Virus record (IMG/VR): IMGVR_UViG_2061766007_001087
DNA length: 46,465 nucleotides
Origin: an uncultured virus (IMG/VR IMGVR_UViG_2061766007_001087)
Lineage: Duplodnaviria; Heunggongvirae; Uroviricota; Caudoviricetes; Schitoviridae
Reading direction: 5' to 3' (one strand)
A program made the position numbers and the translations under genes. Shown here one piece after another: positions 21,007 through 29,742 of this stretch. Each line of letters opens with the position of its first letter. Position 1 is the first letter of the stretch. The notes beneath the pieces were generated by a model, which did no database searches, was not told where the DNA came from, and saw nothing but the letters and a program-made list of their open reading frames with translations.

Positions 21007-21469
21007 AGCATTAAAACATGAATCTAATAATACAAAAGTGTTAGAAATATGTTCTAACGCTTTATACACATTAAAAAACTATAAGGAAATGGAATAAAAT
21101 GCCTAAAATAAAATTTAAAAATATAGTAGAGATAATGTCAGAAAAGAGGATATGCGTATATATCTATAATCCTACTAGAGTTTCACCAAAGAATTTTATC
21201 AATGATAAAAGTTTATTTAAGTTATTATTAACTAAATACGACAATTACTATGTAGACCAGTTNNNNNNNNNNNNNNNNNNNNNNNNNNNNNNNNNNNNNN
21301 NNNNNNNNNNNNNNNNNNNNNNNNNNNNNNNNNNNNNNNNNNNNNNNNNNNNNNNNNNNNNNNNNNNNNNNNNATCAGGTAGCAACTCTAACTAATATGA
21401 AATCAGCAGATGATTTAAGGAAGTTAGCTAGCACTATTTATTACTTAGAAGAATTAAAGGAATTAAAAA

Positions 21470-21646
21470 ATGGTAGTAAGAGAAATGGAAAAGTTTCTAA
21501 GCGAAATAAAAGACAAGGAGATGGAGATAGCCCTGGTAGTGAGGGACAAGGATAAGGACTGTATAGTTGCACTCACTGCACTGGAGTATGATAAAAAAAT
21601 AAATGCTATTAAGGTTGTGCCAAGTGATAGAGTTAGTATAAAATAA
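21470..21646 (+). CDS. 58-aa hypothetical protein
   Basis: AAGGA SD; MVVREMEKFLSEIKDKEMEIALVV...; ends 4 nt before tRNA-Gln. Confidence 0.6.
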   Translation: MVVREMEKFLSEIKDKEMEIALVVRDKDKDCIVALTALEYDKKINAIKVVPSDRVSIK

Positions 21647-21650
21647 TTCT

Positions 21651-21725
21651 AGGGGTGTGGTGTAATGGAAGTCACTACAGGTTTTGATCCTGTCAGATAA
21701 GGTTCGAGTCCTTACACCCCTGCCA
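21651..21725 (+). tRNA. tRNA-Gln(UUG)
   Basis: Acceptor AGGGGTG/CACCCCT + GCCA; anticodon arm ACAGG-TTTTGAT-CCTGT; T arm TAAGG-TTCGAGT-CCTTA. Confidence 0.95.
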
Positions 21726-21730
21726 GTTTA

Positions 21731-21806
21731 GTGCATCTATGTAAATAGGTTAAATTCCTATGATGAGCCACGTGCCCACCAGCAGAAGTGCCATAGATGT
21801 ACCCCA
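21731..21806 (+). ncRNA. 76-nt CCA-ended structured RNA between the two tRNAs (not a cloverleaf)
   Basis: 11-bp terminal helix GTGCATCTATG/CATAGATGTAC followed by C-CCA; internal hairpin ATAGG/CCTAT; no T-arm or anticodon arm. Confidence 0.55.
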
Positions 21807-21816
21807 TTTATGTTAT

Positions 21817-21901
21817 GCCCGTATGGTGAAATTAGTAAACACAAGGGACTTAAAATCCCTCGGATAAATCCTTATCAGTGCAAGTCTGATTACGGGCACC
21901 A
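21817..21901 (+). tRNA. tRNA-Leu(UAA)
   Basis: Acceptor GCCCGTA/TACGGGC + ACCA; anticodon arm AGGGA-CTTAAAA-TCCCT; long variable arm; T arm ATCAG-TGCAAGT-CTGAT. Confidence 0.93.
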
Positions 21902-22505
21902 AATCACTATATAAATTGTTTTGTTTTTTGTTTAACTTGCTCTGACATAACAGGTTCAAAAACTAATATGGCTACTAGTNNNNNNNNNNNNNNNNNNNNN
22001 NNNNNNNNNNNNNNNNNNNNNNNNNNNNNNNNTGGAACATAATGTATCTGCTTTATTAGAAAAGAAACATTTTCTAGATACTGAAAGAGAAAAAACCTAC
22101 AAGAATTATTTGAGAATTTTATCTGAATTAGTTAATGTAGAGTTAGATATAGAGAGTATCAGGAAAGGTGAATATAANNNNNNNNNNNNNNNNNNNNNNN
22201 NNNNNNNNNNNNNNNNNNNNNNNNNNNNNNNNNNNNNNNNNNNNNNNNNNNNNNNNNNNNNNNNNNNNNNNNNNNNNNNTTTAATGTTAAAGATTAAGAG
22301 GTTAAACAGACAGGTCACCAGAGAAAAGAATTTAGGTAGACGTACACATTTTTTGAAGTTACTAAATGAATACAGAGACCAGTTAGATTTACTGGTTGAA
22401 GAGNNNNNNNNNNNNNNNNNNNNNNNNNNNNNNNNNNNNNNNNNNNNNNNNNNNNNNNNNNNNNNNNNNNNNNGTTGTTTCCGTTGTTTTTGTCATGGGG
22501 CGTTT

Positions 22506-23159: not shown

Positions 23160-24195
23160 NNNNNNNNNNNATTTAGCATGTACTCCTAAAGCAACTAAGG
23201 AAAACTGCATTGCAGTATTAAAAGCAAATAGAGTTCCATTTATTCAAGGTTCTCCTGGTATCTCCAAGTCAGATATTGTTAAAGAAATTGCTAATGAATT
23301 TGGACTTAAACTAATTGATTTAAGACTGTCTCAGATGGAACCATGTGATCTTCTTGGATTCCCATTTGAAGTAGGTGACAGAGCAGACTATAAACCAATG
23401 AAAACATTTCCGTTAGAAACAGATAATGTACCTGAAAATTACAATGGCTGGCTATTGTTCTTTGATGAATTTAACTCGGCTAATAGGGAGGTACAGGCTG
23501 CTTCATATCGTATCATTCTGGATAGAGAAATAGGTAATAAAAAGATACATCCTTCCTGCTTTATGGTATGTGCTGGTAATAAGAGCAGTGATAAAGCAAT
23601 AGTAAATAAGTTATCTAGTGCTCTTCAGTCAAGACTGGTACATCTGTTTATGCAACCTAATACAGATGATTGGATTGAATGGGCTATTACTCATAATATA
23701 GATGCAAGAATAATTGCATATCTGTCTAGTAAGCCAGGTAATATATCTACCTTTAATCCAGACTCTACAGATGTTACTTATGCTTGTCCTAGAACATGGC
23801 ATATGCTCTCAGACATCATTAAGGAGACACCAGAGTTAAAGGGTAAGCATCCGTTGATAGCAGGTGTAGTAGGTAAAGGTGTAGCAGTTGAATTTGCTGC
23901 CTTTTGTGACCTTGGTACTGACTTACCTTCTATTGCAGATATTATTGCTAATCCACAGCGTACCAAGATACCAGATAAGTTAAATGCTATGTATTATCTT
24001 ATCTCCAGTATTGCTACTAACTTAGATAAGACTAACTGTACCCCACTTCTGGAATACTGTGACCGCATTACTCGTAAAGAGATGTTGGTATTATTATTTA
24101 GAATTGCCTCTAACGGACCACATGGAAAGGAGTTACTAGATGAATCAGAATTTACAACCAGAGCAATTAAATTTGTTAAAGATTTTGGAGCCTGA
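23160..24195 (+). CDS. MoxR-like AAA+ ATPase (N4 gp24-like); start in N-run
   Basis: Frame extends upstream of the track ORF: VPFIQGSPGISKSDIV (Walker A), LIDLRLSQMEPCDLLGFP, Walker B LLFFDEFNSA, ALQSRLVH, CPRTW. Confidence 0.9.
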
Positions 24196-25200
24196 GTTAA
24201 ACGACCTGTGCGTTAAGTTTGCTATTAAGGGAGGTGCTTTTTTAAGCACCATTTTTTATTCTGTACAAAAGAGTTTTTCATATGATCTTCCATGTGCTGG
24301 TACTAATGGAAGAGTAATTCTGTTTAATCCTAATTTCTTTGCAGAATTAAATAAAGAAGAAAGATTATTTGTTATAGCCCATGAAGTATTGCATATAGCC
24401 TTTCTCCATTTTGTCAGACAAGGTAACAGAGACCAGAGAATCTGGAATATGGCAGGNNNNNNNNNNNNNNNNNNNNNNNNNNNNNNNNNNNNNNNNNNNN
24501 NNNNNNNNNNNNNNNATTGTGATTATAGGGATATGACTACTGAAGAAGTATATGATGCATTAATACAGAAAGACCCAGAAGAACTGAACCAGATAATGCT
24601 AAATGCTAAATTTGGTATGAAAGATATTATGGAAGATTCTATGACAGATGCATCTGGAGAGTCTCACCCTGCAGCAAGTAAAGATGAGGTTACTACTGTT
24701 CTGGTTCAGGCAGAGCAGGTAGCCCAAATGCAGGGTGCAGGTAACTTTTCTAATACTATATCTAAGTTATTGGAGGCTATTAAGACTGTACAGATAGACT
24801 GGTACACATTGTTAATTGATTATGTAAGTAAGAGGATAAAAGATAGTTATTCTTTTACCAAGAGGAATAGGAGGTATAGTCATATGTACTTACCTTCTAT
24901 GAATAGTCTGGGTATGGGTACTATTGCAGTATATATGGACGNNNNNNNNNNNNNNNNNNNNNNNNNNNNNNNNNNNNNNNNNNNNNNNNNNNNNNNNNNN
25001 NNNNNNNNNNNNNNNNNNNNNNNNNNNNNNNNNNNNNNNNNNNNNNCCAATTAATTTAGATTTTGACATATATGGTGGCACTGACATAAACCCATGTCTA
25101 AAGGATATGAATGAACAGAAGTACGATATTTCTATCGTTTTTTCAGATGGTTATTTCNNNNNNNNNNNNNNNNNNNNNNNNNNNNNNNNNNNNNNNNNNN
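24140..25200 (+). CDS. Metallopeptidase-like/vWA domain protein (N4 gp25-like)
   Basis: AGTNG, AHEVLH (HExxH), WNMA, YLPS, IAVYMD, GGTD and FSDGY. Usual partner of the AAA ATPase. End lies in an N-run. Confidence 0.88.
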
Positions 25201-25209
25201 NNNNNNNNN

Positions 25210-26425
25210 NNNNNNNNNNNNNNNNNNNNNNNNNNNNNNNNNNNNNNNNNNNNNNNNNNNNNNNNNNTTTCCAGTAAATCAGAGATTATTCTTACTGGTA
25301 CTCCAGGTACTGGTAAGACCTTCTTTCTGGCAGAGTTCTTAAAATCCTGCTCAGAGGATATTAAATCTTTAAGAGAGATAGGTCTTAATGTAAAGATTAA
25401 TTCTTTGATTTGTACTGCTACTACTAATAAAGCCAGTAATCTCTTAAGAAAGGCTAAAACTATTTATACACTTCTTGGTTTAAAACCAGTAATTGATAAG
25501 ACTACTGGTATGACCTATCTGGAGAAGTGGCAGAATGTAGATAGAAAGGATACTCTTTATATCATAGATGAAGCCAGTATGATTAGCAGTGACTTGTATA
25601 AATATATCCAGGAAGAAATAAAGAAAGGTAATAAGTTTATGTATGTAGGAGATATTAATCAGTTACCACCGGTAAATGATAATAACTTCTCTGTATTTAA
25701 TTTACCGAATCTGGAAGTACTGGAGTTNNNNNNNNNNNNNNNNNNNNNCTCTGCTGATTTACAGGGTCTTATTATTGATATAAGAGATAATATGAAATGT
25801 CCTAATGCTGTTATTAGTCTGTTAAATAATTTAAAGGATTCTGAGCATATTCATATATTGAAAGGTGAGGAAGATGTAAAACAGGTATTAGAGAATTTTA
25901 CTAATTATGATAAGTGCATAGCATATACCAATAAGAGAGTAAATAAGATTAATGGATATATGAGAGCACTTAGGAAAATGCCAAAGAACATTAGTTCAGG
26001 TGACCTGGTAGTAAGCAAGTCTTCTGTATGTAACACAGATAATGGTTTTAGACTGTGCTGTGAAGATGTACTTACTGTTAAGTATATAAAGCAGGATAGT
26101 CGTAATCCAGGTGCATATCTTATTTCATTTTTGAATGTTCCAGGAGAGTTCCACGGGTTTAATGATGTATATAAGTATGATACAGAATGTAAGAGAATTT
26201 ATGCAGAATGTAAAANNNNNNNNNNCTAATTTTAGTGATATGTATCTGAAATTGAAGTTCTCCTATGCAAGTACTGTACACAGTGCTCAGGGGAGTACCT
26301 ATAATAAGGTATTTGTAGATTTAACAGATATTAACTCCTGCAATGATATAGAGACATTTATCAGATTGATTTATGTTGCTATAAGCAGAGCCAAAGATGA
26401 GGTGTATATTTATTATGGAGACTAG
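25210..26425 (+). CDS. Dda/RecD-like SF1 DNA helicase (start in N-run)
   Basis: GTPGTGKT, TATTNKA, IIDEASMI, VGDINQLPPV, YASTVHSAQGST, YVAISRA. Confidence 0.92.
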
Positions 26426-28262
26426 GTATTTACTGATTAAAGAGTCATTAATTATTACAGAGAACATTAGATACTATTATTTTGATAATGGTGTTAGTCC
26501 AGATGTACCAGTAGTACCATTAAAATATGTACAAGATAAATTTAAAGCAAATGAAGCAAAGATGTATTTGCAGGATTTATTAAAAGACCTGCATAGATTA
26601 GGTGCTACTAAGTTACTGGTATGTGATGCAAACTATTTTAAATTAATGACTGGTCAGAAAACTATAGAATTTTCCTATGGGCAGGAGTTCTCCTGTAAAA
26701 TAGGTAACTATAGTTTTAAAATAATACCTGGTATAAACTATAAAGCAATTTCATATAATCCAGAATTACTTAACAAGTTACAGTTATCTATTGATAAATT
26801 TAATGATGTTAATCAATCATTTGCTAATATAACCAGAATAGGAGTTACTGATGTTAGAAAATCTCTGTTATCTCTGCATAATTATAGTATGCTTACCGTT
26901 GATATTGAAACTACTGGGTTATGTTTTTATCTTCATTCTCTCTATAGTATTAGTTTCTCGTGGAGTAACAGANNNNNNNNNNNNNNNNNNNNNNAAGGAC
27001 AAGAAGAAGTTTTAAAAAATTTCTTTGATACTTATCAAGGTAAACTGGTATTCCATAATTCCTCTTTTGATATAAAGTTTCTTATTTATAAGTTGTACAT
27101 GAAAGACATTAATGACCAGGAAGGATTACTTACTGGTCTACATACTCTCTGTAGGAATTTTGGAGATACTAAGATTATTGCATATTTAGCATTAAATTCT
27201 ACTGGTAAACCAGATTATGGATTAAAGCATCTGGCATTACCTTATGTAGGTAAATATGCATTAGAAGATATAAATGATGTTACTAAGGTGCCTGTAGATG
27301 ATTTACTAAATTATAATGTTACAGATACTTGTGCTACCTATTGGGTATATGAGAAATATTATCCAAAGATGGTAGCAGACAATCAGGAGAATATATACAA
27401 TACTTTATTTTTACCTAGTCAGAAAGTACTAATTCAGACTGAATTAACTGGAGTAAGACTAAATCCAACAAAAGTAAAAGATTTTAAACAGAGTGTACAA
27501 GATGCAATTACTGAAGCGGAGAACTATTTAAATAGTNNNNNNNNNNNNNNNNNNNNNNNNNNNNNNNNAGAACTAGATAAAATTAACAGTAAATTAAAGA
27601 CTAAAGTAAAGACACTGGAAGATATTAATTTTAAGATTAATTTGAACTCACACTCTCAGATTGCTCATTTGCTTTATGAAGTAATGCTTCTACCAGTAAT
27701 TGACTATACAGATTCAGGTAAGCCTTCCAGTAGTAAAGATACTATAGAGAAGTTATTAGAAAAGAATACTAATCCAGAATATACAGATATATTAAAGAAC
27801 TTGGTAGAACTGCAAAAGGCTTCTAAAATCTTTTCGGATTTCATCCCTACTATGGAGAATGCTTTCAATGAAAGAATTTTCGGTAGTTTTGTTCTAGGTG
27901 GCACTATATCTGGTAGGTTATCCAGTAAGGAACCAAATCTACAGAATATGCCTTCTACTGGTACTAGTTATGCTAAAGCATTTAAAGCCTGTTTTGATTA
28001 TAGAGATGGGTGGATTATGGTAGGCAGTGATTTTAATGCACTGGAAGACCATATTAATGCATTATTAACTAAAGACCCTAATAAACTGGCTGTATATACA
28101 GACGGGTACGATTCCCATTGTATTAGAGCATTCAATTATTACGGTGACCAGATGCCAGATATAAGACTAGCAGTAGAAGGAGATGAGTGCTGGGTAGAAG
28201 AAGATAAAAATGGACACAAAGAGTATTTTTGTAAACACGGAGACGAGGTATTTAAAGTATGA
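26415..28262 (+). CDS. DNA polymerase family A, N-terminal piece (3'-5' exonuclease, thumb, motif A)
   Basis: VDIETTGL, FHNSSFD, YNVTD, GTISGRLSSKEPNLQN, motif A GSDFNALED, YDSHCIRA. True TGA stop, not next to Ns. Confidence 0.92.
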   Translation: METRYLLIKESLIITENIRYYYFDNGVSPDVPVVPLKYVQDKFKANEAKMYLQDLLKDLHRLGATKLLVCDANYFKLMTGQKTIEFSYGQEFSCKIGNYSFKIIPGINYKAISYNPELLNKLQLSIDKFNDVNQSFANITRIGVTDVRKSLLSLHNYSMLTVDIETTGLCFYLHSLYSISFSWSNRXXXXXXXXGQEEVLKNFFDTYQGKLVFHNSSFDIKFLIYKLYMKDINDQEGLLTGLHTLCRNFGDTKIIAYLALNSTGKPDYGLKHLALPYVGKYALEDINDVTKVPVDDLLNYNVTDTCATYWVYEKYYPKMVADNQENIYNTLFLPSQKVLIQTELTGVRLNPTKVKDFKQSVQDAITEAENYLNSXXXXXXXXXXXELDKINSKLKTKVKTLEDINFKINLNSHSQIAHLLYEVMLLPVIDYTDSGKPSSSKDTIEKLLEKNTNPEYTDILKNLVELQKASKIFSDFIPTMENAFNERIFGSFVLGGTISGRLSSKEPNLQNMPSTGTSYAKAFKACFDYRDGWIMVGSDFNALEDHINALLTKDPNKLAVYTDGYDSHCIRAFNYYGDQMPDIRLAVEGDECWVEEDKNGHKEYFCKHGDEVFKV

Positions 28263-28760
28263 ACGTTACTGATAGAATTGCTAATGAGTTAGTACGCACT
28301 ATAACTGAAGATTATAAAGAAAAACACAAAGTAGAAACTAAATCATTTTTTGAGTATTTTAATATCACTGAAGAAAGTTTAGTAGAAGACCTTAAGAGTA
28401 AATTAAATATCATTATAGAGGCGGNNNNNNNNNNNNNNNNNNNNNNNNNNNNNNNNNNNNNNNNNNNNNNNNNNNNNNNNNNNNNNNNNNNNNNNNNNNN
28501 NNNNNNNNNNNNNNNNNNNNNNNNNNNNNNNNNNGTAGTTTATCTGGAGAATATCTACCCAGAACAGGCAAAAGATTATGCAGATTATGTAAGAACTAAT
28601 GGCATACTTGAAGATAATTTAAGTAGACAAATAAGAGAATTAGAAAAGAATGTTAATAGTGCTATTGCTTGTTGTGCTACGGTAAAAGAANNNNNNNNNN
28701 NNNNNNNNNNNNNNNNNNNNNNNNNNNNNNNNNNNNNNNNNNNNNNNNNNNNNNNNNTAT
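28259..28760 (+). CDS. Protein inserted between the polymerase halves (possibly Nmad5-like)
   Basis: ATGA overlap with the pol-N stop. Helical protein with VNSAIACCATVKE, resembling the C-terminal motif of Nmad5 proteins. End lies in an N-run. Confidence 0.5.
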
Positions 28761-28769
28761 AAAGAAATA

Positions 28770-29117
28770 TATGGAGAGTCAAATGAAGTATGAAGATGAA
28801 CGTGGTATGGTTAATTCTGTAAATGTATATACAACAGAAGAAACTGAATACTTTGATAAGTCTGCCCAGATAGTTATTAATATGAATNNNNNNNNNNNNN
28901 NNNNNNNNNNNNNNNNNNNNACATAAGTATACGAAACTATAATGAAAATTTTGATCAGTTTTATAGTACAGTAGGTGATATACAAAATAGTAGAATAAAA
29001 GATTTGGTACACGAGTATGACAGAGAAAGTGAGAAGAGACGTAACAGTACAACAGTTCAATGTGCAGATGATAAACTCAATAAAGAAGAAGTATCCAGCA
29101 CTGAGACAGGCAAGTAA
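28770..29117 (+). CDS. Second insert ORF (or C-terminal part of the first), overlapping the pol-C start
   Basis: MESQMKYEDERG... then after Ns ISIRNYNENFDQFYSTVGDIQNSRIKDLVHEY...ETGK*. Confidence 0.45.
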
Positions 29118-29742
29118 AGCTCCTACCTTTGCTCTTACTTATGCTGGTACTGCACATACTCTGGTTAATAACTTAGGTATGGAAGAAGAACAAGCCAAAA
29201 AAATAGAAGAAAAATATCATGAAATGTATAAAGTATCTGATGAGTGGGTTGCTGAAAAGATACAGCAGGCTACTATAGATGGATACGTTACCTGTGCTTT
29301 TGGTTTAAGGTTACGTACTCCCCTATTAAAGGCTACTGTACTCAATACTAAAAACACTCCTAAAGAGGCTATAAAGGAGGGTAGAAGTGCAGGTAATGCA
29401 CTGGGTCAGTCTTGGGGACTGTTAAACTGCAGAGCAGTAAATGAAGTAATGCAGCAGGTATGGAACAGTCCTTACAAGAATGATATTAAGCCAATAATGC
29501 AGATACATGATGCCAGTTATTATTTAGTAAAAGAAGATTTAGATGTTATCTGTTACTTAAATAATATACTGGTTAAAGCAATGGAATGGCAGGAAGATCC
29601 TGCTATTGCACATGACCAGGTAAAGTTAGGTGGTGACCTGGATATATATTATCCTGACTGGGCACATCCTATTACAATACCACATAACATTACACCAGAA
29701 GATTTATTTACTTTTTTAAAGGAAAAAACAAATGGACATTGA
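29017..29742 (+). CDS. DNA polymerase family A, C-terminal piece (motifs B and C)
   Basis: Motif B RQASKAPTFALTYAG, GYVTCAFGLRLR, AGNALGQS, motif C QIHDASY. Confidence 0.92.
   Translation: MTEKVRRDVTVQQFNVQMINSIKKKYPALRQASKAPTFALTYAGTAHTLVNNLGMEEEQAKKIEEKYHEMYKVSDEWVAEKIQQATIDGYVTCAFGLRLRTPLLKATVLNTKNTPKEAIKEGRSAGNALGQSWGLLNCRAVNEVMQQVWNSPYKNDIKPIMQIHDASYYLVKEDLDVICYLNNILVKAMEWQEDPAIAHDQVKLGGDLDIYYPDWAHPITIPHNITPEDLFTFLKEKTNGH

Follow-up and report, generated by a model that had tools for sequence, protein, structure and literature searches.

The window, the whole stretch of 46,465 nucleotides that was analysed (IMG/VR record IMGVR_UViG_2061766007_001087), represents part of a divergent N4-like podovirus and is masked with N in places; runs labelled bovine gut contain it. 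PHROGs matches include a virion RNA polymerase, small N4-type RNA polymerase subunits, a DNA polymerase, a primase and a terminase. The nearest phages in GenBank share 66-72% DNA identity with it over short parts of the polymerase. The family-A DNA polymerase (26397-29742) is represented by two ORFs (26397-28262 and 29017-29742) that align to successive portions of a single PHROG profile; an ORF of 167 amino acids lies between the two halves, and an HNH endonuclease ORF lies at 24140-25054. The order at the locus considered here is tRNA-Gln, 5 nt, a 76-nt element, 10 nt and tRNA-Leu. The features are shown in Table 1.

Table 1. Features of the element and its immediate neighbours in the window
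Feature	Position	Strand	Description
Element	21731..21806	+	76 nt; cattle-gut phage; 5 nt after tRNA-Gln, 10 nt before tRNA-Leu
tRNA-Gln(UUG), CCA encoded	21651..21725	+	upstream neighbour; ARAGORN; Rfam tRNA 53.6 bits
Leader GUUUA, 5 nt	21726..21730	+	final four bases = UUUW
P1 5' strand GUGCAUCUAUG	21731..21741	+	partner strand 21792-21802
Junction UAA	21742..21744	+	invariant across the family (alignment)
P2 hairpin	21745..21761	+	stem 21745-21749 / 21757-21761; 7-nt loop UUAAAUU
Junction GA	21762..21763	+	invariant across the family (alignment)
P3 hairpin	21764..21778	+	stem 21764-21767 / 21775-21778; loop CCACGUG (21768-21774)
Conserved segment CCAGCAGAAGUGC	21779..21791	+	family CYAGCAGA(U)RGUGC; 13-14 nt
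Putative P4, 3 bp	21782-21784 / 21789-21791	+	predicted inside the conserved segment
P1 3' strand CAUAGAUGUAC	21792..21802	+	fold, pair counts, alignment
3' tail CCCA	21803..21806	+	read from the sequence
Spacer to tRNA-Leu, 10 nt	21807..21816	+	read from the sequence
tRNA-Leu(UAA), CCA encoded	21817..21901	+	downstream neighbour; ARAGORN, Rfam

The size of the element and its two spacers, as given in the first-pass annotation, match the ARAGORN coordinates, and the 11-bp pairing of the ends with a C-CCA overhang is present in the window sequence and in the fold. Within P1, nucleotides 1-11 pair with 62-72, including one G.U pair at 3/70, and CCCA overhangs. The minimum free energy is -20.6 kcal/mol (z = -3.83), and none of 200 shuffled sequences was as stable. 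The window contains 42 inverted-repeat pairs of at least 11 nt within 80 nt; the significance of the element therefore comes from its conservation and not from the stem. The interior, noted at first pass as one hairpin with neither T-loop nor anticodon arm, is not otherwise unstructured, since homologues reveal a second hairpin (34-37/45-48). The interior hairpins thus number two, each with a 7-nt loop; there is no T-loop, and neither loop is a canonical anticodon loop.

On the + strand of the element no tRNA was called by ARAGORN with default thresholds, relaxed thresholds or mitochondrial models, as expected at first pass, and no tRNA row was returned there by Rfam even at E <= 10. The four homologues described below were likewise not called as tRNA by ARAGORN and gave no tRNA row in Rfam, nor any other Rfam family at E <= 1. 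The position of the last hairpin can accommodate no more than 3 bp around a loop of 4-5 nt, and the closing helix measures 11 bp in all five members, against 7 bp in an acceptor stem. The best weak Rfam row at the element was the archaeal C/D-box model sR7 (E = 1.8); with relatives carrying ACGACUG, a box C/D reading of AUGAUGA was dropped. A hammerhead or other self-cleaving ribozyme was dropped as well, no ribozyme family having appeared in the Rfam scans and AUGAUGA not being conserved. The G3.U70 wobble is confined to the window, with G-C in four of the five members, and an AlaRS-type G3.U70 identity was dropped on the same grounds.

Close relatives were examined in contigs from four runs of four studies, compared over 21400-21975; all four cover the element. 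The contig of run X4 (21561-21808) shows three differences, all at 21619-21625, and an identical element, while the upstream-ORF contig of that run differs at 17 of 181 positions. Between 21808 and 21813 the X4 relative carries 158 other letters in place of 4, which leaves room for another gene-sized RNA. Run X7 has 17 differences over 21427-21863, and among the 14 listed none falls in 21626-21821. Run X5 has a more divergent copy: it shows 26 differences, the 6 gap letters are confined to the spacer ahead of tRNA-Gln, leaving tRNA-Gln and the element free of indels, and the match stops exactly at 21806. The relatives in X4, X5 and X7 indicate that the element forms a unit whose 3' edge is fixed and whose conservation at least equals that of tRNA-Gln. 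The RNA runs X19 and X20 contain a small share (0.03) of the words; X10 is labelled metatranscriptomic and is probably DNA.

Distant homologues were sought with a covariance model built from the window sequence alone (R1) and with a two-sequence model (R2). R1 gave no match in 80 loci around N4-like ATPase genes, taken from an ATPase alignment at <= 50% identity. Among whole IMG/VR records it matched one, the 76-kb G004, in which the ATPase shares 47% identity with that of the window. R2 added no match in 50 IMG/VR records, so that with both models combined one of 52 distinct IMG/VR records carries the element. Three collections were also scanned with a pattern of the blocks common to the window and G004. 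The viral contigs yielded G004 only; seven loci were found among the metagenome contigs, three of which score with R2 (L089, L090, L093), and two among the genome contigs, of which one does (L095). The loci L087, L088, L091, L092 and L094 were rejected as chance pattern matches with no R2 score at E <= 1. The element of L090 is identical in sequence to that of G004, and the family therefore comprises five distinct sequences: the window and four more, two on N4-like podovirus contigs and two on T4-like myovirus contigs. The homologue search with a covariation check that had been proposed at first pass thus delivered four further distinct versions, with compensatory pair changes.

Other searches returned nothing: an exact 19-mer scan of the viral contigs, an exact 21-mer scan of the metagenome contigs and an exact scan of the viral contigs with the 3' half of tRNA-Gln. 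No close relatives were found in IMG/VR with the window's single ATPase protein or with the terminase of the T4-like contig, and no BLAST alignment to GenBank phages covers the element. R2 gave no match in 150 other genomes belonging to the same order as the bin with the T4-like contig, nor in any of five cultured phages (T4, Pollock, KpCHEMY26, Vibrio pv27 and Campylobacter CC_R7). In the annotated tRNA cluster of the N4-like Klebsiella phage KpCHEMY26 (L002), intervals of about 140-530 nt separating tRNAs carry no annotation (locus positions 1163-1307, 1394-1929 and 2090-2261) and could harbour other non-tRNA RNAs.

The contig of L095, G053:C1 (L098-L101), is 79.7 kb long with a G+C content of 29.5% and was binned with a bacterial genome (uncultured Rickettsiales). 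It is a fragment of a T4-like myovirus: it encodes a T4-type tail sheath, baseplate, portal and head, its terminase shares 50.7% identity with the terminase of a Vibrio myovirus, and its coding strand contains 29 TATAAATA words. L093 is a relative of L095. G004 and the T4-like contigs are 89-91% identical over 78-81 nt, the extent of the element, and otherwise show weak tRNA matches only.

One copy is present in each searched genome (G004, G053), and in all five members the element has the orientation of the neighbouring tRNAs. It begins exactly 5 nt after the CCA of a tRNA in three of five, and UUUW stands directly before G1 in all five, in a U-rich leader. In G004 and L089 the order is tRNA-Met, 5 nt, element, about 160-260 nt, a small cysteine-rich ORF, and tRNA-Leu, -Trp and -Gln. 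On the T4-like contigs it is tRNA-Gln, an ORF of 83 amino acids, the element, a short hairpin and a strong hairpin followed by a U run, which we read from the sequence as a probable terminator; the nearest tRNA lies about 300 nt away, with the 83-aa ORF between. An 11-nt direct repeat, ATAGAGCCTTT, flanks the T4-like element and has no other copy in the 79.7 kb. This repeat, together with homology that ends at the edges of the element, suggests acquisition as a cassette.

Searches of the small ORFs beside the element against Pfam and PHROGs gave nothing significant. The stretch that follows the element in G004 (L084:1335-1498, - strand) and, in a longer form, in L089 (L089:1572-1835) is richer in G+C and has a predicted 8-bp closing helix; the G004 stretch of about 164 nt folds no better than shuffled sequences (z = -0.73) and has no Rfam match. 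The cysteine-rich ORF after it in G004 (57 aa; L084:1164-1334, - strand) runs into the start of tRNA-Leu. A homologue of this ORF, with 57% identity across 49 aa (E = 8e-19), is encoded on the T4-like contig at G053:C1:27176-27373, at a distance of 18 kb from the element of that phage. G004 also encodes a tRNA-Phe with anticodon AAA (L084:173-247, - strand; ARAGORN), an anticodon that is unusual for bacteria and phages; the centre of the P2 loop in the window reads AAA too.

The five distinct sequences are aligned in Table 2. Members are 76-80 nt long and sharply bounded.

Table 2. Alignment of the family
Row	Sequence
L090 / L086	GTGCATCTGTGTAAGTGGGTTTGAATTACCACGACTGGCCACGTGTCAGCTAGCAGATGGTGCCACAGATGCACACCCCA
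L089	GTGCATCTGTGTAAGCGGGTTTGAATTACCACGACTGGCCACGTGTCAGCTAGCAGATGGTGCCACAGATGCACACCCAA
Window	GTGCATCTATGTAAATAGG-TTAAATTCCTATGATGAGCCACGTGCCCACCAGCAGA-AGTGCCATAGATGTACCCC--A
L095	GTGCATCTGTGTAAGCGGGCTTAGATTGCCACGACTGGCCACGTGCCAGCCAGCAGATGGTGCCACAGATGCACCTCTAA
L093	GTGCGTCTGTGTAAGCGGGCTTAGATTGCCACGACTGGCCACGTGCCAGCCAGCAGATGGTGCCACAGATGCACCCCTAA

RNAalifold, unaided, returned P1 with 11 bp, P2 with its 7-nt loop, P3 around CCACGUG with a possible additional C-G pair, and a P4 of 3 bp. For the chosen structure, 93.0% of 115 cells pair across the five distinct sequences, in an alignment that was fitted to the model; when the partners are shifted by 1-3 columns, pairing falls to 21.7-52.2% of the cells. 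Double-sided changes occur at five of the 23 pairs (one in P1, two in P2, two in P3), a number equalled by none of 500 shuffles, and represent few independent events because all five set the window apart from the rest of the family. Within the remaining four sequences one independent change is seen: the loop-closing pair of P2 reads U-A in both G004 and L089, against C-G in L095 and L093; the window has G-C. All 11 pairs of P1 are standard in all five members: one changes from A-U to G-C, two change to G.U, and eight never vary. One further pair, in P3, changes from G-C to G.U. The G.U sites are columns 3/72 (window, positions 3/70), 5/70 (L093, positions 5/68) and 38/46 (window numbering 37/45; G004 and L089, three rows with two distinct sequences). 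These pairs fit the tRNA-sense strand only, since the opposite strand would give C.A.

The P3 loop CCACGUG is invariant in all five members, as are the junctions UAA and GA and the AGCAGA..UGC segment, with P1 nearly so; the stems of P2 and P3 vary yet pair. The P2 loop occurs as UUAAAUU, UUGAAUU and UUAGAUU (consensus UURRAUU). The region 21779-21791 is conserved in sequence and may form a short fourth helix, the putative P4, but its three pairs never vary and so show no compensatory change, and the minimum free energy folds of L093 and L095 place a different small hairpin in this region. Fold z-scores of the four relatives are modest, from -1.9 to -2.6.

The tails read CCCA, ACCCCA, ACCCAA, CCCUAA and CUCUAA. 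Letters 1-3 are N-C-C in four of five; N-C-C is the part of the tRNA tail that is paired by bacterial RNase P RNA. An encoded CCA within 1-3 nt of the stem is found in three of five, these being the only members directly behind a tRNA, and the two others, with the tails CUCUAA and CCCUAA, lack it. Mimicry of an acceptor end, which had been proposed at the outset, is not borne out for the family, as no C-CCA overhang is encoded in the two members away from a tRNA.

The hexamer CACGTG of the P3 loop occurs once in the window (46 kb), twice in G004 (76 kb) and twice in the T4-like contig (80 kb), against about 5-9 sites expected by our own composition estimate. The P3 loop is the sole site in the window, and the second site of G004 lies inside tRNA-Gln; the hexamer is scarce, yet kept in the loop. 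The scarcity in the window, G004 and G053:C1 may reflect avoidance of a restriction site. An antisense RNA directed against the phage's own genes was unsupported, no arrangement of CACGTG being shared with a site complementary to the P2 loop.

A chance spacer is excluded by the data, and the element very probably represents a real, selected RNA family. The best explanation is that the element encodes a small structured RNA belonging to a new family, one absent from Rfam, and is neither a tRNA nor a decayed tRNA.

To our knowledge, no explanation has been given for the non-tRNA RNAs of phage tRNA clusters, which have been familiar since T4; the clusters themselves are read mainly as aids to codon usage or as a counter to tRNA-cleaving defences. 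The likeness to the T4 species I and II drawn in the first-pass annotation stands for the context: species 1 and 2 (rnaC, rnaD) are also non-tRNA RNA genes beside tRNA genes on the same strand. It fails for sequence and structure, as the family model finds nothing in T4. With filters off, the best R2 row on the T4 tRNA region has E = 0.23 and falls on the opposite strand, outside rnaC and rnaD, and the whole T4 record gave no match at E <= 1. The T4 RNAs are 139 and 119 nt long, against 76-80 nt for the element; rnaC has a T-arm-like hairpin, whereas the element has no T-loop; and their annotated ends are not CCA, contrary to the earlier description of the T4 species as CCA-ended.

The C4 antisense RNA is similar in size to the element and acts through exposed loops. 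Hairpin-like non-tRNA RNAs, namely the phage M3 and C4 RNAs and pre-4.5S RNA, are described as substrates of RNase P, and in C4 of P1 and P7, M3 of phi80 and pre-4.5S the 5' and 3' ends are joined in a helix, as in the element (PMC11143913). No curated Rfam model of such RNase P-matured RNAs matches the element, however, chance rows being all that Rfam gave there at E <= 10, and its cleavage by RNase P would be by analogy. Polycistronic tRNA transcripts are described as processed by RNase E and RNase P (PMC2190699). Irregular tRNAs are reported from phage tRNA clusters, some of them apparently unused in translation (Mukai et al., PMC5389517). As described there, irregular tRNAs and allo-tRNAs retain an acceptor branch of 12 bp (8/4 or 9/3) together with an anticodon arm and loops resembling those of tRNAs, and tRNA-type searches detect them (PMC5389517), whereas the element fails all tRNA models, has 11 bp plus at most 3 bp, offers only non-canonical and variable candidate anticodon loops and lacks a T-loop. 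The window element resembles a canonical tRNA (RF00005) in length, end helix, N-CCA tail, order of the helices round one junction and location in a tRNA operon; it differs in having no T-loop, D-stem or canonical anticodon loop and in its 11-bp rather than 7-bp stem. Full-text searches of an open-access library, on tRNA-like non-tRNA RNAs in phage tRNA clusters and on tRNA mimics or decoys, listed no paper describing such an element.

The element would be co-transcribed with the tRNAs. Host RNase P would then cleave immediately 5' of G1, directed there by the length of the closing helix and by the C-rich tail at the 3' end. The 3' side would be trimmed by an endonuclease and exonucleases, and the freed RNA would accumulate stably and act in trans through the exposed invariant loop and the 3' segment. 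We regard the odds of such release by tRNA-processing enzymes followed by action in trans as about even. Processing by the tRNA machinery is less obvious for the T4-like members, which lie about 300 nt from a tRNA, behind an ORF, and have no CCA.

As an alternative, the element could serve in cis as a processing or stability module of the tRNA transcript, its helix and tail recruiting RNase P or blocking exonucleases and so aiding maturation of the tRNAs or of downstream RNA, with a functionless released piece. The 5-nt distance to a tRNA in three of five members, the constant tRNA orientation, the long closing helix with an N-C-C tail in four of five, and the location of the T4-like copies near the end of a transcription unit, before the presumed terminator, are consistent with such a role. 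It would have no need, however, of an invariant 7-nt loop, junctions and 13-14-nt segment across unrelated phages, and most tRNA-bearing N4-like phages do without the element (one of 52 IMG/VR records has it); a purely cis role is possible but not probable.

The element might also be a selfish mobile mini-element of little or no benefit to the phage. Its transfer could take place at the DNA level, the 11-bp arms then serving as terminal inverted repeats, or by way of an RNA copy. Homology between unrelated phages that ends at its edges points in this direction, as do the nearly fixed arms (eight of 11 P1 pairs), the direct repeat present once on each side in the T4-like contig, the CCA on both sides in the three tRNA-adjacent cases and the A-rich sequence after the tail in four of five. 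Against it stand the single copy per genome and the tRNA orientation in five of five, internal helices that covary and G.U pairs that are strand-specific, conservation within lineages above that of the neighbouring DNA, and the direct repeat itself, which abuts the upstream arm only, with 8 nt separating the downstream copy from its arm; an exact scan with the flank of the T4-like copy found no empty site. We consider this origin distinctly unlikely. A miniature inverted-repeat element in the strict sense was rejected, since the element is neither multicopy nor found in either orientation, and no duplications abut both arms.

That the element is a decayed tRNA gene, having kept the acceptor stem, U8 and a D-loop-like AA..GG while its interior drifts, is highly improbable. 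The window member does have tRNA length, with acceptor strands, discriminator and CCA in canonical register, and positions 8, 14, 15, 18 and 19 carry letters common in tRNAs by the general consensus. In the family, however, the interior is the most conserved part and not the least, so that the homologues did not reveal a decaying canonical tRNA, an outcome envisaged at first pass; relatives reach 80 nt with other tails, the 11-bp stem is present in all, and no tRNA model scores the element in any of its five contexts. A non-canonical decoding tRNA (for example one lacking a D-arm or having a longer acceptor stem) that is aminoacylated and takes part in translation is scarcely credible: the helix order is cloverleaf-like, the 7-nt P2 loop has U in second place and irregular tRNAs are described from phage tRNA clusters (PMC5389517), but the would-be anticodon varies (AAA, GAA, AGA), U occupies position 6 of the loop, a T-loop is lacking, the acceptor branch with P4 would be 14 bp and not 12, the ARAGORN mitochondrial models are silent on the + strand, and CCA is missing in two of five although the tRNAs of the same contigs appear to encode it, to judge by the ends called by ARAGORN and Rfam, which lie 3 nt apart.

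For an RNA that acts in trans, the difference between the phages makes the partner most likely a broadly conserved host component that handles tRNA-like RNAs, or the element's own RNA; self-association is possible, as the P3 loop contains a 6-nt palindrome. A function as decoy against a tRNA-directed defence is unlikely. A broader proposal, which we hold only as speculation, is a new class of phage non-coding RNA that would spread horizontally between unrelated virulent phages by settling in their tRNA transcription units and would capture a universally conserved tRNA-handling factor with its invariant palindromic CACGUG loop, singly or as a kissing dimer, and the anticodon-like P2 loop. Were it true, the RNA would be released by host RNase P and 3' trimming and would act, for example, as a decoy or inhibitor of a tRNA-directed defence nuclease or a tRNA-modifying enzyme. 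The near-identity of the RNA in unrelated N4-like and T4-like phages from different sources favours a partner that many hosts share. The family belongs to a known kind, the small non-tRNA RNAs of phage tRNA clusters, and is new in its fold and in its unusually wide spread among phages. With a compact size of 76-80 nt and clear boundaries, it lends itself to synthesis and expression and would make the function of such RNAs directly approachable.
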